Assembly (NCBI GenBank): GCA_036253495.1
Contig: GCA_036253495.1_4125.1
Strand: one strand, 5' to 3'
DNA: 64,000 bases
Origin: a phage
Under the pieces are notes generated by a model. It was given only the letters and a program-made list of their open reading frames with translations. It was not told the DNA's origin and made no database searches. Made by a program: the position numbers and the translations under genes. Of the stretch, positions 5,745 through 62,350 are shown in pieces. Positions within the stretch are counted from its first letter, which is position 1, and the number at the start of each line of letters is the position of its first letter.

Positions 5745-6098
5745 ATGTTGATTTACTTATGTGTGCTTTTGGTTTCATTGGTTGTAGCAGTATTAGTACT
5801 GAAAACTATTTCAACTATTCGTTCTAAAATTGATAAACATCAAGAAAATTCTGTTATCGATTTAGTTATGGATTTTCCTAAAATCAGTGCAGCCGTTGTT
5901 TTTGTTGTTATGTTATTTGGAACATACTGCGTAAAAGGCTACCTCTATGGTATGTATGATTGTAGCGTTCGTTCATATTCACAAGGTGTTGAAACTGACT
6001 ATAGCTGGTACTATGGTAAGTGTCGTTTTAAAAATGAACATGGTATTTGGGTAGATTTTGATAAACTACGCGGAACACCATCAGGTGATGAAGAATAA
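5745..6098 (+). CDS. small membrane protein
   Basis: AGGAGA RBS; two hydrophobic segments. Confidence 0.5.
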   Translation: MLIYLCVLLVSLVVAVLVLKTISTIRSKIDKHQENSVIDLVMDFPKISAAVVFVVMLFGTYCVKGYLYGMYDCSVRSYSQGVETDYSWYYGKCRFKNEHGIWVDFDKLRGTPSGDEE

Positions 6099-22927: not shown

Positions 22928-22965
22928 AATAAATAGTTACCTATAGATTAATCTAAGGAGTAACT

Positions 22966-23316
22966 ATGTTTAAAAGTAATCTTAAAGTAGAATTAATTAA
23001 TAACGAAGGTCAACGTTGGAAAGTTCTAGAAGATCTAGAATACGAGTATAACGGTATTAAAATTGTTGTTCCCGCAGGTTTCAAAACTGATTTTGCAAGC
23101 GTCCCACGTATTCGTGGTATATTTGAACTAGTCGGTAATATGGGTCACGCCGCAGCAACAATACATGACTACTTGTATAGTACTGGTATGCTATCCCGTA
23201 AAGATAGTGATAAGGTGCTACTACAGGCTCTACGTGCTACTGAAGTTGGTAAGCCACGTAGTATGATTATGTATGCTGGTGTTCGTGTATTCGGTTGGTT
23301 GTTTTACAAAAAATAA
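22966..23316 (+). CDS. hypothetical protein, DUF1353-like
   Basis: AAGGAG RBS; GFKTDFASVPR...IHDYLY pattern. Confidence 0.5.
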   Translation: MFKSNLKVELINNEGQRWKVLEDLEYEYNGIKIVVPAGFKTDFASVPRIRGIFELVGNMGHAAATIHDYLYSTGMLSRKDSDKVLLQALRATEVGKPRSMIMYAGVRVFGWLFYKK

Positions 23317-24688: not shown

Positions 24689-24825
<137 letters not shown>

Positions 24826-24838
24826 CGAGGAATCCAAA

Positions 24839-25036
24839 GTGACTAAAGCAGAACTTGTAGCATTATTGGAATCATATCCCGATGATGCATGTATTGAAGT
24901 TGTTCATAGTGCGAGACATTTTGACATTGAAGATGTAGTACGTTATAATGACAAAGGTGTACTCATCATGGAACTATGTATTGGTGAAATGAAAACTGTA
25001 CCCGAATCAGAAAAACGTAAAAATAGTAAACCGTAA
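24839..25036 (+). CDS. hypothetical protein
   Basis: GTG start 24839 after ACGAGG RBS. Confidence 0.45.
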   Translation: MTKAELVALLESYPDDACIEVVHSARHFDIEDVVRYNDKGVLIMELCIGEMKTVPESEKRKNSKP

Positions 25037-53778: not shown

Positions 53779-54210
53779 ATGTGGGTTAACGTTAATAGTA
53801 CTGAACTTAATGAAATTGATATCTTTGCATTTGTTAATCTGGAAACTGATACCTTTGTTCGTGGACGTTTGTTCATGAGTTCTTCCTGTGTTCGCAGTAT
53901 TGCAGTTATGGATGAACTCGGTCAGGTAATTGAGTGTCTACCATTACCTGCATGGGCATATAGCAGTACTGAAGAAGATGTAATGCATAAGATCTTTGAA
54001 GGTATCAATAAGCTACCTGGTGCAGATGTGAAGAATAAGATATTCAACATTGAGAATAAGAACTACAGTGCAGATGTACTGCGTCCTTTAGTTGATTCAG
54101 TACTGCAAGCTGCATTAGCTAAACCTAAGTGCATTATTTTAAAGTACATTCCAGAACTTTCCCTAACTAAAGAGGATATGAAAGGATTTATATTCTCATC
54201 GGAGTTGTGA
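53779..54210 (+). CDS. hypothetical protein
   Basis: ORF with ATG 53779. Confidence 0.5.
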   Translation: MWVNVNSTELNEIDIFAFVNLETDTFVRGRLFMSSSCVRSIAVMDELGQVIECLPLPAWAYSSTEEDVMHKIFEGINKLPGADVKNKIFNIENKNYSADVLRPLVDSVLQAALAKPKCIILKYIPELSLTKEDMKGFIFSSEL

Positions 54211-54434
54211 TGAAAAGGTATAAAATTGAATACCTACTTAAAGTAAGAGAGAAAAGTATTAGTAGTGAGAAATACACCAGTGAGATATTCGTCAGAGATG
54301 AGTATTACATTGGTGAAAATGAAGTTGAAGTACTGTTACAATGCATAGAAAATGAATTTCGAGATATGACACGTTATATGTCATTTGAGATATCGTGTGC
54401 AAAAGTTACATTCTTGAACAATACTTCATATTAA
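54210..54434 (+). CDS. hypothetical protein
   Basis: ATG 54210 overlapping upstream stop. Confidence 0.5.
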   Translation: MKRYKIEYLLKVREKSISSEKYTSEIFVRDEYYIGENEVEVLLQCIENEFRDMTRYMSFEISCAKVTFLNNTSY

Positions 54435-54438
54435 AAAA

Positions 54439-54478
54439 GGGTTGACTTTTGTTGACCCTTTTTGCTATTCTATAAATA
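54439..54478 (+). promoter_or_regulatory. terminator-promoter composite cassette with downstream TATAAATA (T4 late-promoter-like)
   Basis: Hairpin GGGTTGAC-TTTT-GTTGACCC plus T5; TTGACT 54442-54447; TATAAATA 54471-54478. Confidence 0.5.
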
Positions 54479-54524
54479 TAGACATAGAGAATATATAACA
54501 TGAAATCTATGGAGAGAAATCAAA

Positions 54525-56063
54525 ATGCCAGGTAAATTCACTGACAAAAACGGCGGCAATATGGCTGGACACTCTGATAAATGGAGTGATGAGAATCGTC
54601 GCAAAAATAGTTTCCAAGCGGGGCAAGGTTCCCGTGGCTCTCGCAACCAAGGAACGGGAGAAGCTGGGAAAGCAAACACAGTTGCATCACAGGGTCTTGA
54701 TACTTCAAACATGTCCCAGCATGAAAAATTGAAGTACTTCAATAGTCTTGGTCTTTTAAATCCGCAGCAGAAGCAACAACTTGCTGCTCTGGATAAAGCA
54801 CAAGAACAACCTAAAGCAGCACCTGAAGCACCTGCACAGCCTAAAGCGGCTAATCCGGTAAAAGAACTAAGTGATAAACTTGGGAAGATCTTTGCTAACA
54901 AACCACAACTAATTCAAGGTATCGTAAAAGCACTTCAAGCGGTTCCTAAAGAACAACTCAAGGATAAAGCACAAGCTGTTCTTGATAGTATGAAAGGGAA
55001 TACCAGTACTGAACCAACTGAAGTATTCAGTACTATCATGCGTGCACTTGAAGGTAAGCCACAGGCCGATGATGATATTGAGTTTGATGAACCTGCACAA
55101 GAAGTAGCAAATCTTGACTCAATCGTTTCTACATTTGGAAAAATTGGTGCAGAAGATAAGACTAATGCACAACAAGTTAAGAATGTACAAGCTAAGTTAC
55201 AAAATCGTCTTGAAGGTAAAGATGAAAAGATTAAACTTGCAGCAGATGCGTTGAAGAAAGCATTAGAATCATATAAACCTGGTGAGAAATCTCGCTTCAT
55301 TACTGCAATGAATGCAGTATTCGGTGCAATGAAAAAGTATGAAGCTGAACACGGTGAGAAAGTAACTCCTGATGGATATCTCCTTCGAAAAGATGAAGAA
55401 GGTGCTGTTGACCAGAAGGACGCTGAACCAGACTATGGTGATTTACCGGATACAGTTGATATGGATGGTTACATTCATCGTCCTGATATGCAAGAATTTG
55501 GTTCAGACAAAGAAGGTTTTGAACATGCTATGGCTGTGTACAAAGCATTAGTCGATAATCCACAATATGCAAATAGTTTTGTAGATGAGTTTGATAGTGC
55601 ATGGAACAACTACCAAGACAAAGGATATGATTTCCCAGCAGAAGCAGCATTCTTTGAACTAGGTAAACTTCTTGCTAAAAATGGTATTAATGTTGGTTCT
55701 AATGGTGAAGCAAACACTTCAGAAATGGACGCTGAATTGGCTAAAGATCGTGAAATGACTGATAAGTCAATTCATGAACTACAAAAGCTAATGATGTGGA
55801 TTGCTGAAATTGGTAAGAAAGCTGGTGCAGATCCTAAGAGCATTAACAGCAATATTAGTTGGATTAAACATAAGGTTGATAACAATGCCCGTAAATTACA
55901 AAAGGCATGGACCGACCTAGTGAATGGTGCAGACGATGTTGATATCGATTCACCGGAAGCATACGAGTACGCATTGAACACACTTGATAACTCTTTCCAG
56001 GATTACGAAAATGGTAACGTAACTGATTGGGAAAAGGATATCATGCATAAGTACGGTAAATGA
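54525..56063 (+). CDS. Ala/Lys/Gln-rich low-complexity protein (possible virion internal protein)
   Basis: 512-aa ORF, GC-richer codon usage than neighbours; flanked by strong terminator-promoter cassettes. Confidence 0.6.
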   Translation: MPGKFTDKNGGNMAGHSDKWSDENRRKNSFQAGQGSRGSRNQGTGEAGKANTVASQGLDTSNMSQHEKLKYFNSLGLLNPQQKQQLAALDKAQEQPKAAPEAPAQPKAANPVKELSDKLGKIFANKPQLIQGIVKALQAVPKEQLKDKAQAVLDSMKGNTSTEPTEVFSTIMRALEGKPQADDDIEFDEPAQEVANLDSIVSTFGKIGAEDKTNAQQVKNVQAKLQNRLEGKDEKIKLAADALKKALESYKPGEKSRFITAMNAVFGAMKKYEAEHGEKVTPDGYLLRKDEEGAVDQKDAEPDYGDLPDTVDMDGYIHRPDMQEFGSDKEGFEHAMAVYKALVDNPQYANSFVDEFDSAWNNYQDKGYDFPAEAAFFELGKLLAKNGINVGSNGEANTSEMDAELAKDREMTDKSIHELQKLMMWIAEIGKKAGADPKSINSNISWIKHKVDNNARKLQKAWTDLVNGADDVDIDSPEAYEYALNTLDNSFQDYENGNVTDWEKDIMHKYGK

Positions 56064-56072
56064 TAAAAAAGA

Positions 56073-56104
56073 GGTTGACTTCGGTCAGCCTTTTTTGCTA
56101 TAAT
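56073..56104 (+). promoter_or_regulatory. terminator-promoter composite cassette
   Basis: Hairpin GGTTGAC-TTCG-GTCAGCC plus T6; TTGACT 56075-56080 and TATAAT 56099-56104. Confidence 0.65.
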
Positions 56105-56131
56105 ACTCACATAACCTAAAGGAGAAACTCT

Positions 56132-56407
56132 ATGAACACATACGAACGTTTAGTTGGCTCAATGCGTTATGAAGAAATTTTAAGTGATATCGAAGAACTG
56201 AAAGACTCGAAAAGTTACATCCACTTAGATGAACTTATCGTGAAGTATGGGGAGGTTGGTGCAAAAGAATTAATTTGCTTTATGGTTCATGTTCGAAATT
56301 TAAATTACTTTGATCTTTCATCGAAGAACGGTGAACCGAATCTTTATTATCTATATTATTTGAAACATAAAGATGCATGTAATAAATTATTCTTAGAACT
56401 TTTATAA
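56132..56407 (+). CDS. hypothetical protein
   Basis: AAGGAGAA RBS. Confidence 0.5.
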   Translation: MNTYERLVGSMRYEEILSDIEELKDSKSYIHLDELIVKYGEVGAKELICFMVHVRNLNYFDLSSKNGEPNLYYLYYLKHKDACNKLFLELL

Positions 56408-58597: not shown

Positions 58598-58927
58598 ATG
58601 AAAAAACTACTAACTATTTTAGTACTATCTGCTATTACGTTGACGGCTGGATGTACCGTTAAAAAAGATTTATTCCCTGTTGGTGGAAGTAAAGCTGATG
58701 GTGTTATTAGGCTTGGATACACATTCGACCAGCGATCTGAAATTCCATTAATTGATTTGGAACAGGGATTGTATGTAGCTACTAAACGATGCCAAAAGTG
58801 GGGATATTCAGGTGCTGAAATTTTTGGTGGCTCCACAACAATGTGTTCTGACCAACGTCCACTGGGGTGTGTTGCAACAAATGTCACATATGAATATCAA
58901 TGTACTGGTGACTTAAAAGAAAAATAA
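58598..58927 (+). CDS. putative lipoprotein
   Basis: GAGGATAA RBS; signal peptide with lipobox-like LTAGC. Confidence 0.55.
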   Translation: MKKLLTILVLSAITLTAGCTVKKDLFPVGGSKADGVIRLGYTFDQRSEIPLIDLEQGLYVATKRCQKWGYSGAEIFGGSTTMCSDQRPLGCVATNVTYEYQCTGDLKEK

Positions 58928-58998: not shown

Positions 58999-59436
58999 AT
59001 GACCCGCATTAACTTAGTACACGTTAAAGAACTTGCTGACCAACATCTGATGGCTGAATATCGTGAACTTCCACGTGTATTTGGTGCTGTACAAAAACAT
59101 GTTCAAGCACGTAAGCGTGTACGTGATTTCAAAATTAACAGTACTTATCTGTTAGGTTCAGGTCATGTAACATTCTTCTACGACAAGTTACTATACTTAC
59201 AGAAGCGTCATATTGATATTGTTAACGAATGTTTGCGTCGTGGTATGAAGATTCAAAACACTGAAGTAAACGACATTAGCGGCTTCCCTGCTGAGTTTTG
59301 TAATGACTACGTACCATCGGAGTCCGAGATTAAAACATCACGCGAGCGTTTGATTGAGAAGCTTCAGATGAAGCCTAAGTGGTATAAGTTTACTGATGTT
59401 GAGCTACCTATATATTATGTTGATATGATACAATGA
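58999..59436 (+). CDS. denV: endonuclease V (pyrimidine-dimer DNA glycosylase/AP lyase), T4 DenV homolog
   Basis: Near-identical N-terminal block MTRINL...[21 protein letters not shown] and [10 protein letters not shown] core match T4 endonuclease V as I recall it; GAGAGG RBS. Confidence 0.9.
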
Positions 59437-59725: not shown

Positions 59726-59965
59726 ATGAAACTATCTTTTATACGTTTAGCAGAATTCTTCGGTACTGATATAATTACTTTACAACAAATTGCAGACAAT
59801 ACTTCATTAAGCACACAAGAAGTACTTGACTTAGATGTGATAGAGTGTGATAATACTTCTATCGATTATAAAGAAGGTCTTGTCGAAAAAGATAAGATTC
59901 AGGCTAAGATTAATGGTGCTGGACGGGTTCAGTACTGGAAAGGGGTTTTAAGTAATGCGTGTTGA
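59726..59965 (+). CDS. hypothetical protein
   Basis: GAGG RBS. Confidence 0.5.
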   Translation: MKLSFIRLAEFFGTDIITLQQIADNTSLSTQEVLDLDVIECDNTSIDYKEGLVEKDKIQAKINGAGRVQYWKGVLSNAC

Positions 59966-61289
59966 TATTAAAGTACCTTTTAAATGTGAACCACTGAAAT
60001 TTGTCCAAGATTATGAAATATCTAAAACTATCGAATTTAGTGAAACCGCTTCAAAACTTGATATTAGTAGGAAAATTTTAGGTGAAAAGTATCCAGATGT
60101 AATATGGGATGATTTCAATCCATATAATATGGAAAAAGATGAAATGTGTAAAGACGAAATTATTGGCTTTGTTCGTATGGGAGTTCAAAATCTAAAATAT
60201 TATGCATATATATGTCAAAAATGCTCGACAAATTCAAAACAAAATGGTTTAGGTATATTTTTTACATTAAAAAGATATATTAAAAATAAAATTACATGTA
60301 TGTGCTCAAAAACACCACTATATACAAATTATCAACGAACTATACAACTTCATAATAAATCTATAAGTTTAGGTTATGTGTTTATTGGATATAATAAAGA
60401 AAAACAAATAACTTCGGATGCTAAAATAAAACTAGGATGTTATAATCATGGTATGTGGGATACTATAACAATAAATTCGTATAACACCAACTCACGCGGC
60501 TGTTCAAAATGTGCTGGTGTTCATTCACCATCACAGGAAGAAGCAAATGAAAAAATAAAACAAATTTGTAATGAAAATAAATTAGTATTTCAACCTTTCC
60601 TATATAAAAATAATAAAACTAAAATTTTTGTAAGATGTTTGGTATGTAATGAATCATGGGAGTCAAACTATTTTAAACTTTATACCATGAAATATGGTTG
60701 CCAACGTTGTGTAGGAACAAAAAAGTTAACTACTGAGATTTCTACAGGAATTGTATCAGATTATTGTACAAAATATAAGTTGACTTTCATTCCATTTGTG
60801 TATGATAATAATAAGATGAAAATATCTCTACGTTGTGATATTTGTTCACATGAATGGATAACACCATTCAATGGTATTACTAATAGAATGGGGTGTCCAA
60901 GATGTAATCCAACTGAAGCAATACGTATTTCTAAAGATTTAGATCCATTAATAGATGATTTTCAGCCGGAAAAGAAATTCCTTGAACTTGGAAAGATGCG
61001 ATTTGATAGATTCAGTCAACGATTAAACATTCTGTTTGAATATGATGGGGAACAACACTTTATTTCCAATAGGGTTTGGCATTCTACTACATCTAAGTTT
61101 GAATCTTCTCGTGAACGTGACAGTATAAAAACAGAATACGCAATAAAAAATGGATATAACTTCATTCGTATTGCGTATTATGAAGACCATATTGGAGCAT
61201 TGAAATCTTTCCTTAAACTCATTGAAGAGAATCCAGGAAAGCAAATCGTACAGATCTATGGTGATGTTCAAATCTTAGACAAGAAATAA
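59955..61289 (+). CDS. putative homing-type endonuclease with tandem Zn-ribbon repeats and C-terminal Vsr/DUF559-like nuclease domain
   Basis: Repeated CxxC modules (CQKC, CSKC, CQRC, CPRC) in about 45-aa repeats; C-terminal FDRFSQRLNILFEYDGEQHF...RDSIKTEYAIKNGYNFIRIAY. Confidence 0.55.
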   Translation: MRVDIKVPFKCEPLKFVQDYEISKTIEFSETASKLDISRKILGEKYPDVIWDDFNPYNMEKDEMCKDEIIGFVRMGVQNLKYYAYICQKCSTNSKQNGLGIFFTLKRYIKNKITCMCSKTPLYTNYQRTIQLHNKSISLGYVFIGYNKEKQITSDAKIKLGCYNHGMWDTITINSYNTNSRGCSKCAGVHSPSQEEANEKIKQICNENKLVFQPFLYKNNKTKIFVRCLVCNESWESNYFKLYTMKYGCQRCVGTKKLTTEISTGIVSDYCTKYKLTFIPFVYDNNKMKISLRCDICSHEWITPFNGITNRMGCPRCNPTEAIRISKDLDPLIDDFQPEKKFLELGKMRFDRFSQRLNILFEYDGEQHFISNRVWHSTTSKFESSRERDSIKTEYAIKNGYNFIRIAYYEDHIGALKSFLKLIEENPGKQIVQIYGDVQILDKK

Positions 61290-61360: not shown

Positions 61361-62131
61361 ATGACCAGAGAAGCACGCAGCATTCAAATTCAGAAAAACT
61401 TCAACTCCATGATGGTTGCTCTTGAGTGTTTGCTCGATGATAGCAGTACTGTAAAAAGTATGGTTGTCAGCGGTGCTCCTGGTGTTGGTAAGACTTACAC
61501 CCTCTCTAAACGCCTCCAGAAAGCACATGACGCGGCAGAATGGAACGTAGCTACCATCAGTGGTAAAATGACCACTCTGGCTCTGTACGAAGTTCTGTAC
61601 AAGAATCGTCATAGCACCAACGTGTTAGTACTGGATGATATGGACAGCATCTTTGATTCAGAAGACGGTATGAACCTGCTCAAAGCAGTACTGGATAGTG
61701 GCAAGCGTACTGTTTCTTATATGACTAGCTCGAAGTATCTGAGCAGCAACGGTATCCCTAACAGCTTTGATTTTAATGGTCGCATCGTATTCATTACTAA
61801 CAAAGATTTAGCACTGAATGCTAAAGCTAAAACTAAAATGTCTGCTCACTATGCTGCTCTTATGTCTCGCTCTGTATACGTTGACTTACAGATCCAGACC
61901 AAAAGCGATATCATGATTCACATTGAGAACGTGATGAACCAGACCAACATTCTGGAATCTAAGGGTATTAACAGTAATGGTAGTAAAGCAATCCTGAACT
62001 GGATGTTGAAGCACGAAGATTCACTTCGTTCACCTTCACTGCGTATGCCACTGTTGATTTCGGCAGTATATAACAACAACCCATACGATTGGGAAGAGCA
62101 ATGTGAAAACTTGTTCCTGGAGAAAAATTAA
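61361..62131 (+). CDS. P-loop NTPase (AAA-like ATPase)
   Basis: Walker A GAPGVGKT, Walker B VLVLDDMD; GC-richer codon usage (CTG, CGT, ACC) than neighbours. Confidence 0.65.
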   Translation: MTREARSIQIQKNFNSMMVALECLLDDSSTVKSMVVSGAPGVGKTYTLSKRLQKAHDAAEWNVATISGKMTTLALYEVLYKNRHSTNVLVLDDMDSIFDSEDGMNLLKAVLDSGKRTVSYMTSSKYLSSNGIPNSFDFNGRIVFITNKDLALNAKAKTKMSAHYAALMSRSVYVDLQIQTKSDIMIHIENVMNQTNILESKGINSNGSKAILNWMLKHEDSLRSPSLRMPLLISAVYNNNPYDWEEQCENLFLEKN

Positions 62132-62158
62132 TTGATAACATATAACATCGATAAGGTC

Positions 62159-62350
62159 ATGTTATTATATGCATGTATTAACATGATTGTCGTTTTAGTT
62201 AAAGTTTATAGATGGTTTCATACACTTGATATTGATACTGAAAAGGAGTATAATCCTCAAGAAGCACCACTGGGTTTAAAAGTTATTGTTTTAATTACTG
62301 TAGTGTCTGTATACATGGTATTACTATCAACTATGATTAAGTTCACTTAA
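62159..62350 (+). CDS. small membrane protein
   Basis: ATG 62159 (track start 62132 is TTG); hydrophobic helices. Confidence 0.4.
   Translation: MLLYACINMIVVLVKVYRWFHTLDIDTEKEYNPQEAPLGLKVIVLITVVSVYMVLLSTMIKFT

Follow-up and report, generated by a model that had tools for sequence, protein, structure and literature searches.

The stretch of DNA analysed here, referred to as the window, comprises 64,000 nucleotides (64 kb) and is 99.2% identical to Escherichia phage A4, an Asteriusvirus jumbo phage of 355 kb that belongs to the 121Q/RaK2 group. Given this identity, a source phage that is T4-like in the narrow sense was rejected. The gene under study, taken from the list of open reading frames, occupies positions 54525..56063 on the + strand and encodes a protein of 512 aa (56.6 kDa, pI 5.0) that is orthologous to A4_214 (99.6% identical), 121Q gp201 and phAPEC6 gp035c. 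Its ATG at 54525 is validated as the start codon, since M1 and P2 are invariant in 24 of 24 homologues (alignment A1). The product matches PHROG 20398, 'virion structural protein', with an E-value of 2.9e-201, as well as PHROG 16530 (E = 1.2e-46). In the A4 record, the orthologue is annotated merely as 'hypothetical protein', and the phAPEC6 record labels gp035c 'chromosome segregation protein'. A Pfam search of the 512-aa product returned sub-threshold noise alone; thus, the latter label is unsupported, and a chromosome segregation/SMC identity was dropped for gp035c. The gene is sited within the early region, well away from the clusters of head and tail genes, and its genomic neighbourhood is the same around 121Q gp201, phAPEC6 gp035c, RaK2 ORF275, K64-1 gp344, GAP32_032 and CBB_38. 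Identity among Asteriusvirus orthologues ranges from 64 to 78%, and the K64-1 homologue is 39% identical over its full length. Between A4 and 121Q, the orthologues share 73.5% amino acid identity, as compared with 90% nucleotide identity for the head genes. Family lengths vary from 155 to 606 aa, and whole modules of the middle region differ among relatives.

The gene is preceded by a composite element that combines a terminator with a σ70-type promoter, and that can be defined by a GC-rich hairpin plus T-run, a TTGACT in the 5' arm of the hairpin and a -10 hexamer located 17–18 nt downstream. The window contains seven copies of this cassette, all on the + strand and spread through the early region, and Asteriusvirus, K64-1 and Hallingskeid share the same cassette upstream of this gene. 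A preliminary description of this DNA had placed such a composite cassette at 54439, which is confirmed by an intrinsic-terminator hairpin, AAAAAGGGTTGAC-TTTT-GTTGACCCTTTTT (54434..54463, + strand; terminator scan and RNA folding), that would end the upstream early unit and whose 5' arm holds the -35 element. The hairpin folds at -16.1 kcal/mol (z = -6.5), with none of 200 shuffles being as stable. The predicted σ70-type early promoter (54442..54471, + strand) consists of the -35 hexamer TTGACT (54442-54447), an 18-nt spacer, a TG dinucleotide at 54463-54464 and the -10 hexamer TATTCT (54466-54471), and scores 9/12 in a promoter scan with its extended -10 TG. All the defining parts of the cassette are therefore present, with TATTCT, a weaker -10 than the TATAAT of the sister cassettes, in place of the latter; orthologous cassettes retain TAT..T at 17–18 nt in the forms TATACT, TATTGT and TATGCT. 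The next cassette (56067..56104, + strand; folding and promoter scan) comprises a hairpin at 56067-56096 (-16.7 kcal/mol, z = -4.9), predicted to end the transcript of the gene, and a canonical early promoter for the next gene, TTGACT-18-TATAAT, at 56075-56104 (score 11/12).

The octamer TATAAATA lies at 54471..54478 (+ strand) and is predicted to be a T4-type late promoter, that is, a -10-like element for a gp55-like σ factor, on the grounds of its rarity, its invariance and its association with late genes. Its exact coordinates had been reported correctly, together with a distance of about 45 nt to the ATG at 54525, the gap being 46 nt. The octamer overlaps the last T of the σ70-type -10 hexamer TATTCT by one base, and it is separated by 23 nt from the first TTGAC and by 13 nt from the second, both outside the 16–19 nt range. 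When the start-site distance of T4 late promoters is applied, an invariant ATAG at 54484..54487 (+ strand; 5–8 nt downstream of the octamer, columns A60, T61, A62 and G63 of alignment A2) would be the initiation region of the late transcript. Downstream of it, the conserved leader ATGAAATCTATGGAGAGAAATCAAA (54500..54524, + strand), near-identical in A4, 121Q, JNE01 and EJP2, includes the Shine-Dalgarno sequence GGAGAG at 54511-54516, and RNA folding of the leader predicted no stable structure.

In the 64-kb window, counting both strands, TATAAATA occurs once versus 10.5 +/- 3.3 expected copies, and each of 100 shuffled windows holds at least one; the 7-mer ATAAATA occurs 11 times versus 37.8 +/- 5.5 expected. 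About 4% of the window consists of positions that precede a coding-strand gene start by 31–70 nt. The same picture emerges in 121Q, where 17 copies of the octamer are found in 348.5 kb, the lowest count among all 56 orderings of A5T3 (mean 67). Of these 17 copies, 12 lie upstream of gene starts on the coding strand, 11 of them at about 10–55 nt and one at about 140 nt, and they precede gp54, gp199, gp201, gp499, gp586 (baseplate hub), gp590, gp594 (endonuclease VII), gp596 (hub), gp602 (scaffold), gp603 (major capsid), gp614 and gp472/471. In A4, TATAAATA is found before the scaffold gene and before A4_587, a structural gene, and CATAAATA before the major capsid gene; the first base is not strict, with C/A-ATAAATA lying upstream of the genes for the A4 major capsid protein and protease. 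The capsid, scaffold and baseplate genes that follow the octamer do so without a -35 element.

Upstream of the gene itself, the octamer is invariant amid varying flanks in 6–7 phages from three lineages (A4, 121Q, phAPEC6, JNE01, EJP2, K64-1 and Hallingskeid), and RaK2 and Salmonella phage 7t3 keep ATAAATA before the orthologous gene. In the more distant relatives GAP32, CBB, Serratia phage BF and Yen9-04, a canonical TTGACA-17-TATAAT promoter with at most a CTAAATA in its spacer precedes the short homologue, and late control is therefore not obviously family-wide. For CBB and GAP32, ATAAATA late promoters have been predicted before structural genes (PMC5259590). The RaK2 paper neither analyses promoters nor has an entry for ORF275 in its text, and a literature search found no Asteriusvirus transcriptome. 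A candidate reader of the octamer is encoded by 121Q gp591, a gp55-like σ factor that matches PHROG 12791 at 2.7e-154 and PHROG 234 at 8e-18 and that retrieves cyanophage gp55 in a tblastn search. Its A4 counterpart, A4_588, is 92% identical to it, is annotated as late σ factor and is encoded outside the 64-kb window. The T4 co-activator gp33 and the sliding clamp gp45, which tie late transcription to replication, have been reported as not detectable in CBB (PMC5259590), and therefore the mechanism of late activation may differ from that of T4. Taken together, depletion, invariance across lineages, placement before capsid, scaffold and baseplate genes and the presence of a gp55-like σ factor bear out the T4 late-promoter-like character proposed in the preliminary description, and support the view that, in this phage lineage, the octamer acts as a late promoter of the T4 type. 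Dual early and late promoters, proposed as well, are a fair reading of the overlap between the octamer and the σ70-type promoter, in so far as promoter activity, start sites and timing of the gene are what we infer from the DNA sequence.

Composition calls for a different reading from the one first offered, according to which the gene uses GC-richer codons than its neighbours. Its GC content is indeed 0.400 versus a mean of 0.343 (sd 0.033), yet a codon comparison across the window gives a GC3 of 0.273, below the mean of 0.289; the excess resides in GC1 (0.577 vs 0.442) and in GC2, which is also raised. An excess at the first and second codon positions points to amino acid content rather than codon choice, and, since GC3 is below average, a foreign origin deduced from GC content was rejected for this gene. 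Likewise, the grouping of the gene with denV and the ATPase at 61361 does not hold, because the three differ in GC3: a real excess (0.471) is seen in the P-loop ORF at 61361 and only a slight one (0.342) in denV. As for the description of the product as Ala/Lys-rich and of low complexity, Ala (10.9%) and Lys (10.7%) are its commonest residues, but low complexity is confined to the linker at residues 84–108 and the disordered N-terminus, the rest being predicted to form ordered helices. Codon usage was also considered as proof of late expression and rejected as such: it is clearly late-gene-like for 121Q gp201 and gp199, and intermediate for the gene in the window, whose late-versus-early score is -0.017 (late mean +0.049, early mean -0.077).

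The protein can be divided in two parts on the basis of alignment A1, an AlphaFold2 model and pI values. The conserved basic N-terminal module (54525..55055, + strand) comprises residues 1–83, which are rich in Gly, Ser, Asn and Arg (pI 9.9) and mostly disordered, a Pro/Ala/Lys/Glu linker at residues 84–108 and a helical domain at residues 109–177 that carries the invariant motif NPVKELSD...VPKE. These N-terminal ~180 aa are common to all family members and are the only part conserved outside Asteriusvirus, save residues 397–512 in the Klebsiella-phage homologues. The module is also present in 121Q gp199, a paralogue of it (E = 6e-11), in phAPEC6 gp037c and in the 155–175-aa forms of GAP32, CBB and Serratia phage BF. 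When the N-terminal 180 aa were used in an exhaustive phmmer search of 1.84 billion representatives, 30 matches were obtained; in all but one weak match, the domain begins no further than ~25 residues into the matched protein, and these positions revealed no informative domain fusion. The remainder (55056..56060, + strand) is variable, acidic (pI 4.5–4.8) and all-alpha: residues 178–396 are modular, with insertions and deletions between relatives (alignment A1), and residues 397–512 form the helical bundle common to the Klebsiella-phage homologues, with a pLDDT of 80–94 for residues 397–510. Overall, the model describes an all-alpha protein with a 'beads on a string' arrangement and a disordered conserved N-terminus. 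Its fold appears to match none that is known: the best Foldseek match in the PDB was serum albumin (E = 0.59), reflecting generic helical similarity; Foldseek against the BFVD viral models retrieved family members alone; and a PDB profile search had no match below E = 0.04.

That the product is packaged in the virion, as had been suggested, is supported through its orthologues. For instance, mass spectrometry of virions detected phAPEC6 gp035c with 8 peptides and 28.8% coverage (PMC7247149, Table 1) and CBB_38 with 9 peptides and 56.6% coverage (PMC5259590), and GAP32_032 and RaK2 ORF275 are marked as virion-detected in the tables of the CBB paper (PMC5259590). Virion association of the 512-aa product itself is thus a supported, orthology-based prediction. 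Residence within the head, whether in the inner body or among the ejected proteins, is plausible, at a likelihood approaching an even chance. An inner body has been reported for 121Q and phAPEC6, its components not being identified (PMC5646251, PMC7247149), and the all-alpha 'beads on a string' architecture, the disordered conserved N-terminus and the fast divergence hint at such a location; the acidic character of the whole protein speaks against it, and neither the Foldseek searches (PDB and BFVD) nor the PDB profile search found any resemblance, in structure or in sequence, to internal or ejection proteins.

A related question is whether the protein is processed. The absence of a T4-like N-terminal capsid-targeting sequence, already remarked upon in the preliminary description, is mirrored in the conservation pattern: the N-terminus reads MPGKFTDKNGG..., and alignment A1 contains no conserved L/I-x-E protease site near it. 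The 121Q major capsid protein holds L41-T42-E43|S44, which fits the reported processing from 42.2 to 37 kDa, and so a preference of the protease for Leu or Ile at P3 is probable. Capsid targeting or cleavage at QGTGE46|A, which holds the only early Glu in a G-x-E context, was rejected because E46 is variable among homologues. V112-K113-E114 is invariant, 114 residues in and with Val at P3, and VKE114 as a cleavage site is speculative.

These observations are best accommodated by a self-contained transcription unit that encodes a virion protein and lies within the early (host-takeover) region of an Asteriusvirus jumbo phage, a reading to which we assign a probability of roughly three in four. 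The hairpin terminator would block read-through from the upstream early genes, and its 5' arm would at the same time provide the -35 TTGACT of a host σ70 promoter whose -10 is weakened to TATTCT. The octamer would be read by the host core RNA polymerase carrying the gp55-like σ factor (A4_588/121Q gp591), so that late transcripts would begin about 6 nt further on, near 54484-54486, carry a leader of ~40 nt with a strong Shine-Dalgarno sequence and end at the cassette at 56067. From the late promoter and the cassette layout, it would follow that the gene is expressed late, as virions are being assembled, and probably also weakly at early times. The product would then be built into the particle, with the basic N-terminal ~180 aa presumably anchoring it there and the fast-evolving acidic C-terminal part being the functional, variable one. 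An extension of this scheme, in which residues 1–177 are a RaK2-like virion-incorporation signal, the family supplies inner-body or ejected proteins, the C-terminal modules act in the next host and the dual promoter reflects a need in both cell and particle, is regarded as doubtful.

Two alternatives concern the octamer. Its being a chance AT-rich word without function is the least probable of all: a genome with 34.5% GC makes AT-rich words common in general, but the roughly ten-fold depletion in the window, the lowest rank among the 56 composition-matched orderings in 121Q and the invariance across three lineages in spite of changing flanks effectively refute this idea, and the class of positions in which the octamer falls covers only ~4% of the window. 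It is also improbable, albeit less extremely so, that TATAAATA merely supplies the -10 (TATAAA) of a host σ70 promoter, the gene being early only and its detection in virions reflecting carry-over of an abundant protein. The early genes surrounding it, the plain σ70 promoters of the distant homologues and the position of the octamer in EJP2, exactly 17 nt after TTGACT, would agree with that. Nevertheless, the octamer in the window lies outside the range of proper spacing from either TTGAC, in the window, as in 121Q, JNE01 and K64-1, the proper -10 slot is filled by a separate TAT..T hexamer, genes for capsid, scaffold and baseplate proteins follow this octamer with no -35 element, and four independent virion proteomes detect the family, with a coverage of 29–57% where reported.

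A late virion-protein unit could also encode an external or a tail or neck component of these unusually ornamented virions (for example hairs, whiskers, decoration or neck) rather than a head-packaged protein, which would leave the reading of the promoter unchanged. Mass spectrometry tells only that a protein is present in the particle, many fibres and decoration densities of phAPEC6 and 121Q are unassigned, and the 512-aa protein is acidic and has no conserved protease-processing signal. Nonetheless, such a role is considered rather unlikely in view of the all-alpha fold, devoid of any beta-rich, Ig-like or fibre-type domain, the position of the gene inside the early region at a distance from the head and tail clusters, and a C-terminal part that is modular and fast-evolving behind a conserved N-terminal module.

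If the preferred reading of a late virion-protein unit is correct, the 'hypothetical' gene of A4 could be relabelled as a late-transcribed virion protein, and a working definition of the Asteriusvirus late promoter becomes available, namely (T)ATAAATA ending ~45–50 nt before a start codon and strongly avoided elsewhere, by which hundreds of unknown genes in 350-kb phages can be sorted into temporal classes. The gene and the 121Q paralogue gp199 would then represent two 'late islands' in the early region, both of which are sensible first candidates for inner-body or ejected proteins of 121Q-type phages.

Several known systems offer points of comparison. The internal proteins IPI, IPII and IPIII of T4 are likewise non-essential-looking, fast-evolving and encoded outside the head and tail clusters, and their genes have both early and late promoters, as predicted here; they are small and basic, in contrast to the 512-aa acidic protein, and possess a 10-residue capsid-targeting sequence ending in L/I-x-E that the latter lacks, and PHROG and Pfam searches found no homology to any of the three. 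A phiKZ-like inner body is seen in bubblegrams of 121Q and phAPEC6, for which the present product is a helical virion protein without an assigned place; Foldseek against viral models gave no structural match to phiKZ inner-body proteins, and none of the phAPEC6 proteins is reported to resemble them (PMC7247149). A further parallel is provided by the T4 late promoters, which consist of the same octamer, have no -35 requirement and are located ~45–55 nt ahead of where the coding sequences for head and baseplate proteins begin, in a genome that, like this one, encodes a gp55-like σ factor and strongly counter-selects the motif elsewhere. They differ in that the present phage is an Asteriusvirus jumbo phage and not one of the Tevenvirinae, and in that the element here is fused to a terminator/σ70 cassette with whose -10 it overlaps by one base. 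As a late virion-protein gene, it is unremarkable but well documented, and it does not overturn current understanding.

The octamer TATAAATA, which the preliminary description placed at 54471-54478, is indeed found there, upstream of ATG 54525, which opens a 512-aa ORF ending at 56063 on the + strand. This start codon can be considered secure, as judged from a Met-Pro pair invariant among 24 aligned homologues and from a preceding Shine-Dalgarno sequence, GGAGAG. The conserved leader (window 54500-54535; 6063-6095 in the 121Q locus L002) holds another ATG. In 121Q this ATG shares the reading frame of the gene and stands 24 nt before its start; in the window an additional A puts it out of frame, so that it opens an upstream ORF of 11 codons running over the start codon. 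When both strands of the 64-kb window are counted, TATAAATA is present as a single copy, while dinucleotide-preserving shuffles predict 10.5 ± 3.3 copies and never contain fewer than one; the 7-mer ATAAATA is also depleted (11 found, 37.8 ± 5.5 expected). Since the octamer is a word avoided by the genome, is present once and falls within the approximately 4% of window positions located 31-70 nt before a gene start, its occurrence is real and non-random, and a chance origin is ruled out.

The most satisfactory interpretation of the octamer is a T4-type late promoter that has been grafted onto a cassette of terminator and early promoter, because four lines of evidence converge: its conservation, its genome-wide behaviour in phage 121Q, its association with late genes in Escherichia phage A4 and the presence of a gp55-family sigma factor. 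TATAAATA is invariant 5' of the orthologous gene, amid varying bases, in the window phage and its fellow Asteriusvirus members 121Q, phAPEC6, JNE01 and EJP2, in the Alcyoneusvirus K64-1 and in Erwinia phage Hallingskeid, and RaK2 and Salmonella phage 7t3 retain ATAAATA at this place. The whole 121Q genome (348.5 kb) contains 17 copies, making TATAAATA the rarest of all 56 words composed of five A and three T (mean 67). Twelve of these lie on the coding strand 5' of a gene start, the distance from octamer end to gene start being about 10-55 nt for 11 of them and about 140 nt for gp472; the genes behind them include those for the major capsid protein, the scaffold, two baseplate-hub proteins, endonuclease VII, several structural proteins defined by mass spectrometry, gp201 (the orthologue of the 512-aa protein) and gp199. 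In A4, TATAAATA precedes the scaffold gene and the structural gene A4_587, and CATAAATA lies about 45 nt before the major capsid gene, a spacing equal to that of the window's gene. The motif would be read by a late sigma factor of the gp55 family, represented by A4_588 and 121Q gp591. An ATAAATA late motif has also been predicted upstream of structural genes in two relatives, CBB and GAP32 (PMC5259590).

The composite cassette noted at 54439 is real and one of seven near-identical copies in the window (42995, 51426, 51783, 54439, 56073, 59666 and 61300), all on the + strand, with none on the minus strand. The unit consists of GGTTGAC-TTCG-GTCAGCC followed by five to six T and GCTATAAT; it is a terminator hairpin that supplies, in its 5' arm, the -35 element of a sigma-70 promoter. 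By these cassettes the early region is split into short units of transcription. The copy before the window's gene (from 54434) deviates in one respect, its -10 element being TATTCT with the upstream TG kept, and the last T of TATTCT is the first T of TATAAATA. Orthologous cassettes have a like layout, with TATACT, TATTGT or TATGCT followed by ATAAATA; in EJP2 only, the octamer itself occupies the -10 slot. In the window such a role is excluded by distance, since 23 nt separate the octamer from the first TTGAC and 13 nt from the second, which argues for a separate element. The proposed dual early and late promoter is thus a fair reading, with activity and timing inferred. The sequence TTGACA-17-TATAAT stands 5' of the short homologue in Serratia phage BF, GAP32, Yen9-04 and CBB (about 520-600 in loci L009, L010 and L011, respectively, and about 320-400 in L020). 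Its spacer contains CTAAATA, a variant listed among CBB late promoters, and from the spacer a long inverted repeat, AATCCCCTAA...TTAGGGGATT, extends to the ribosome-binding site. In RaK2 (locus L004 1261-2500 = 202456-203695), the homing-endonuclease gene ORF274 lies immediately 5' of the homologue, which is without the hairpin cassette, yet keeps ATAAATA 39 nt before its start codon.

Two further sites in the window deserve mention. A distance of 37 nt separates AATAAATA at 22928 from ATG 22966 of ORF 22966-23316 (116 aa; Pfam DUF1353 and PHROG 1158, 'tail assembly chaperone'; Shine-Dalgarno AAGGAG), a case that supports the late-motif rule. Codon usage in this ORF is more late-like than in any other of the window, so that it is probably a second late gene within the early region. 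Within 24770-25036, TTGACA-17-TATAAT followed 7 nt on by ATAAATA stands directly 5' of the GTG-initiated ORF 24839-25036 (PHROG 19687, annotated unknown function), a possible further early-plus-late pair.

The claim of GC-richer codons holds for the GC content of the gene (0.400 versus 0.343 ± 0.033) and fails for codon choice. As the excess resides at codon positions 1 (0.577 versus 0.442) and 2, position 3 being under the mean (0.273; mean 0.289), it reflects how much Ala, Gly, Asp, Glu and Val the protein contains and no preference among codons. The P-loop (AAA/STAND-like) ORF at 61361-62131 (PHROG 1250, annotated unknown function), which had been likened to it, differs in kind: its GC3 of 0.471 is about 3 sd high, a true codon-level excess for which recent acquisition is the more likely origin. 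By a codon score trained on 121Q to tell late from early genes, gp201 and gp199 of 121Q group with late genes and the window's gene takes an intermediate place; for this reason the score is not leaned on for late expression.

The gene product belongs to a family of virion proteins previously described in RaK2-like jumbo phages, and the predicted presence in virions is borne out in relatives. Purified phAPEC6 virions yielded 8 unique peptides of the confirmed orthologue, gp035c, covering 28.8% of it (PMC7247149 Table 1); the CBB homologue CBB_38 was detected with 9 peptides and 56.6% coverage in published CBB data, and GAP32_032 and RaK2 ORF275 are likewise marked as detected in the CBB supplementary tables. 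The protein matches no Pfam family and falls in PHROG 20398, 'virion structural protein'; its homologues, which form 68 clusters at 90% identity and number 30 representatives in a set of 1.84 billion proteins, are confined to jumbo-phage genomes and contigs. Five segments can be told apart in the alignment: an N-terminus (residues 1-83, pI 9.9) that is rich in Gly, Ser, Asn and Arg and strongly conserved; a Pro/Ala/Lys/Glu linker (84-108) that varies; a helical domain (109-177) that is invariant; an acidic, modular middle in which whole blocks differ between relatives; and a C-terminal helical bundle, again conserved. In the AlphaFold2 model, small domains follow one another along an all-alpha chain whose first ~57 residues are disordered (mean pLDDT 73, pTM 0.30), and no structural likeness outside the family was found among solved and predicted structures. 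A paralogue of the N-terminal core (residues 55-156, E = 6e-11) is the 127-aa virion protein gp199 of 121Q (101502-101929; 1502-1929 in locus L015), equivalent to phAPEC6 gp037c (48% mass-spectrometry coverage) and preceded by its own TATAAATA 36 nt upstream; the window has no gp199 counterpart, its place being taken by ORF 54207-54434 (75 aa, without PHROG match).

An internal, in-head location of the protein, to which we assign a probability of roughly 0.4-0.5, agrees with the early-region position, both promoter types, the all-helical build, the rapid, modular divergence seen downstream of a conserved N-terminal module, and the phiKZ-like inner body of 121Q and phAPEC6 (PMC5646251, PMC7247149), of which the protein is a candidate component. 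The main rival is an external, neck or tail role; against an internal location count the acidic character of the whole protein (pI 5.0), the lack of a conserved T4-type cleavage signal and, as the preliminary description had it, the lack of a T4-type targeting signal, and the internal proteins of T4 and phiKZ bear no similarity to it. A late promoter and a virion-protein gene are known kinds that would not surprise a specialist; the gene is of use in annotation and may point the way to inner-body or ejected proteins.

The window phage is a relative of A4 (ON286972; 99.2% identity over 54200-56300) and not A4 itself, because it carries an extra ~399 bp with a YecR-like lipoprotein ORF and a shorter homing-endonuclease gene. 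The former (58598-58927; PF13992, E = 9e-22; lipobox LTAGC), placed between a small ORF and denV, appears to be an insertion, to judge from the shift of its coordinates relative to those annotated in A4; the latter, an HNH/homing-endonuclease gene (59955-61289), is very AT-rich (GC about 0.27) and 363 nt shorter than A4_225. The label 'endonuclease V' on A4_227 (window 62132-62350, a 72-aa hydrophobic ORF) seems to be a labelling error of the database entry, since the true denV homologue lies at 58999-59436. A4, with 355 kb, is an Asteriusvirus and thus one of the RaK2-like jumbo phages of the 121Q/PBECO4 group. The phage initially assumed was T4-like; this lineage is only distantly akin to T4, but has head, tail and replication genes of T4-like type in common with it.
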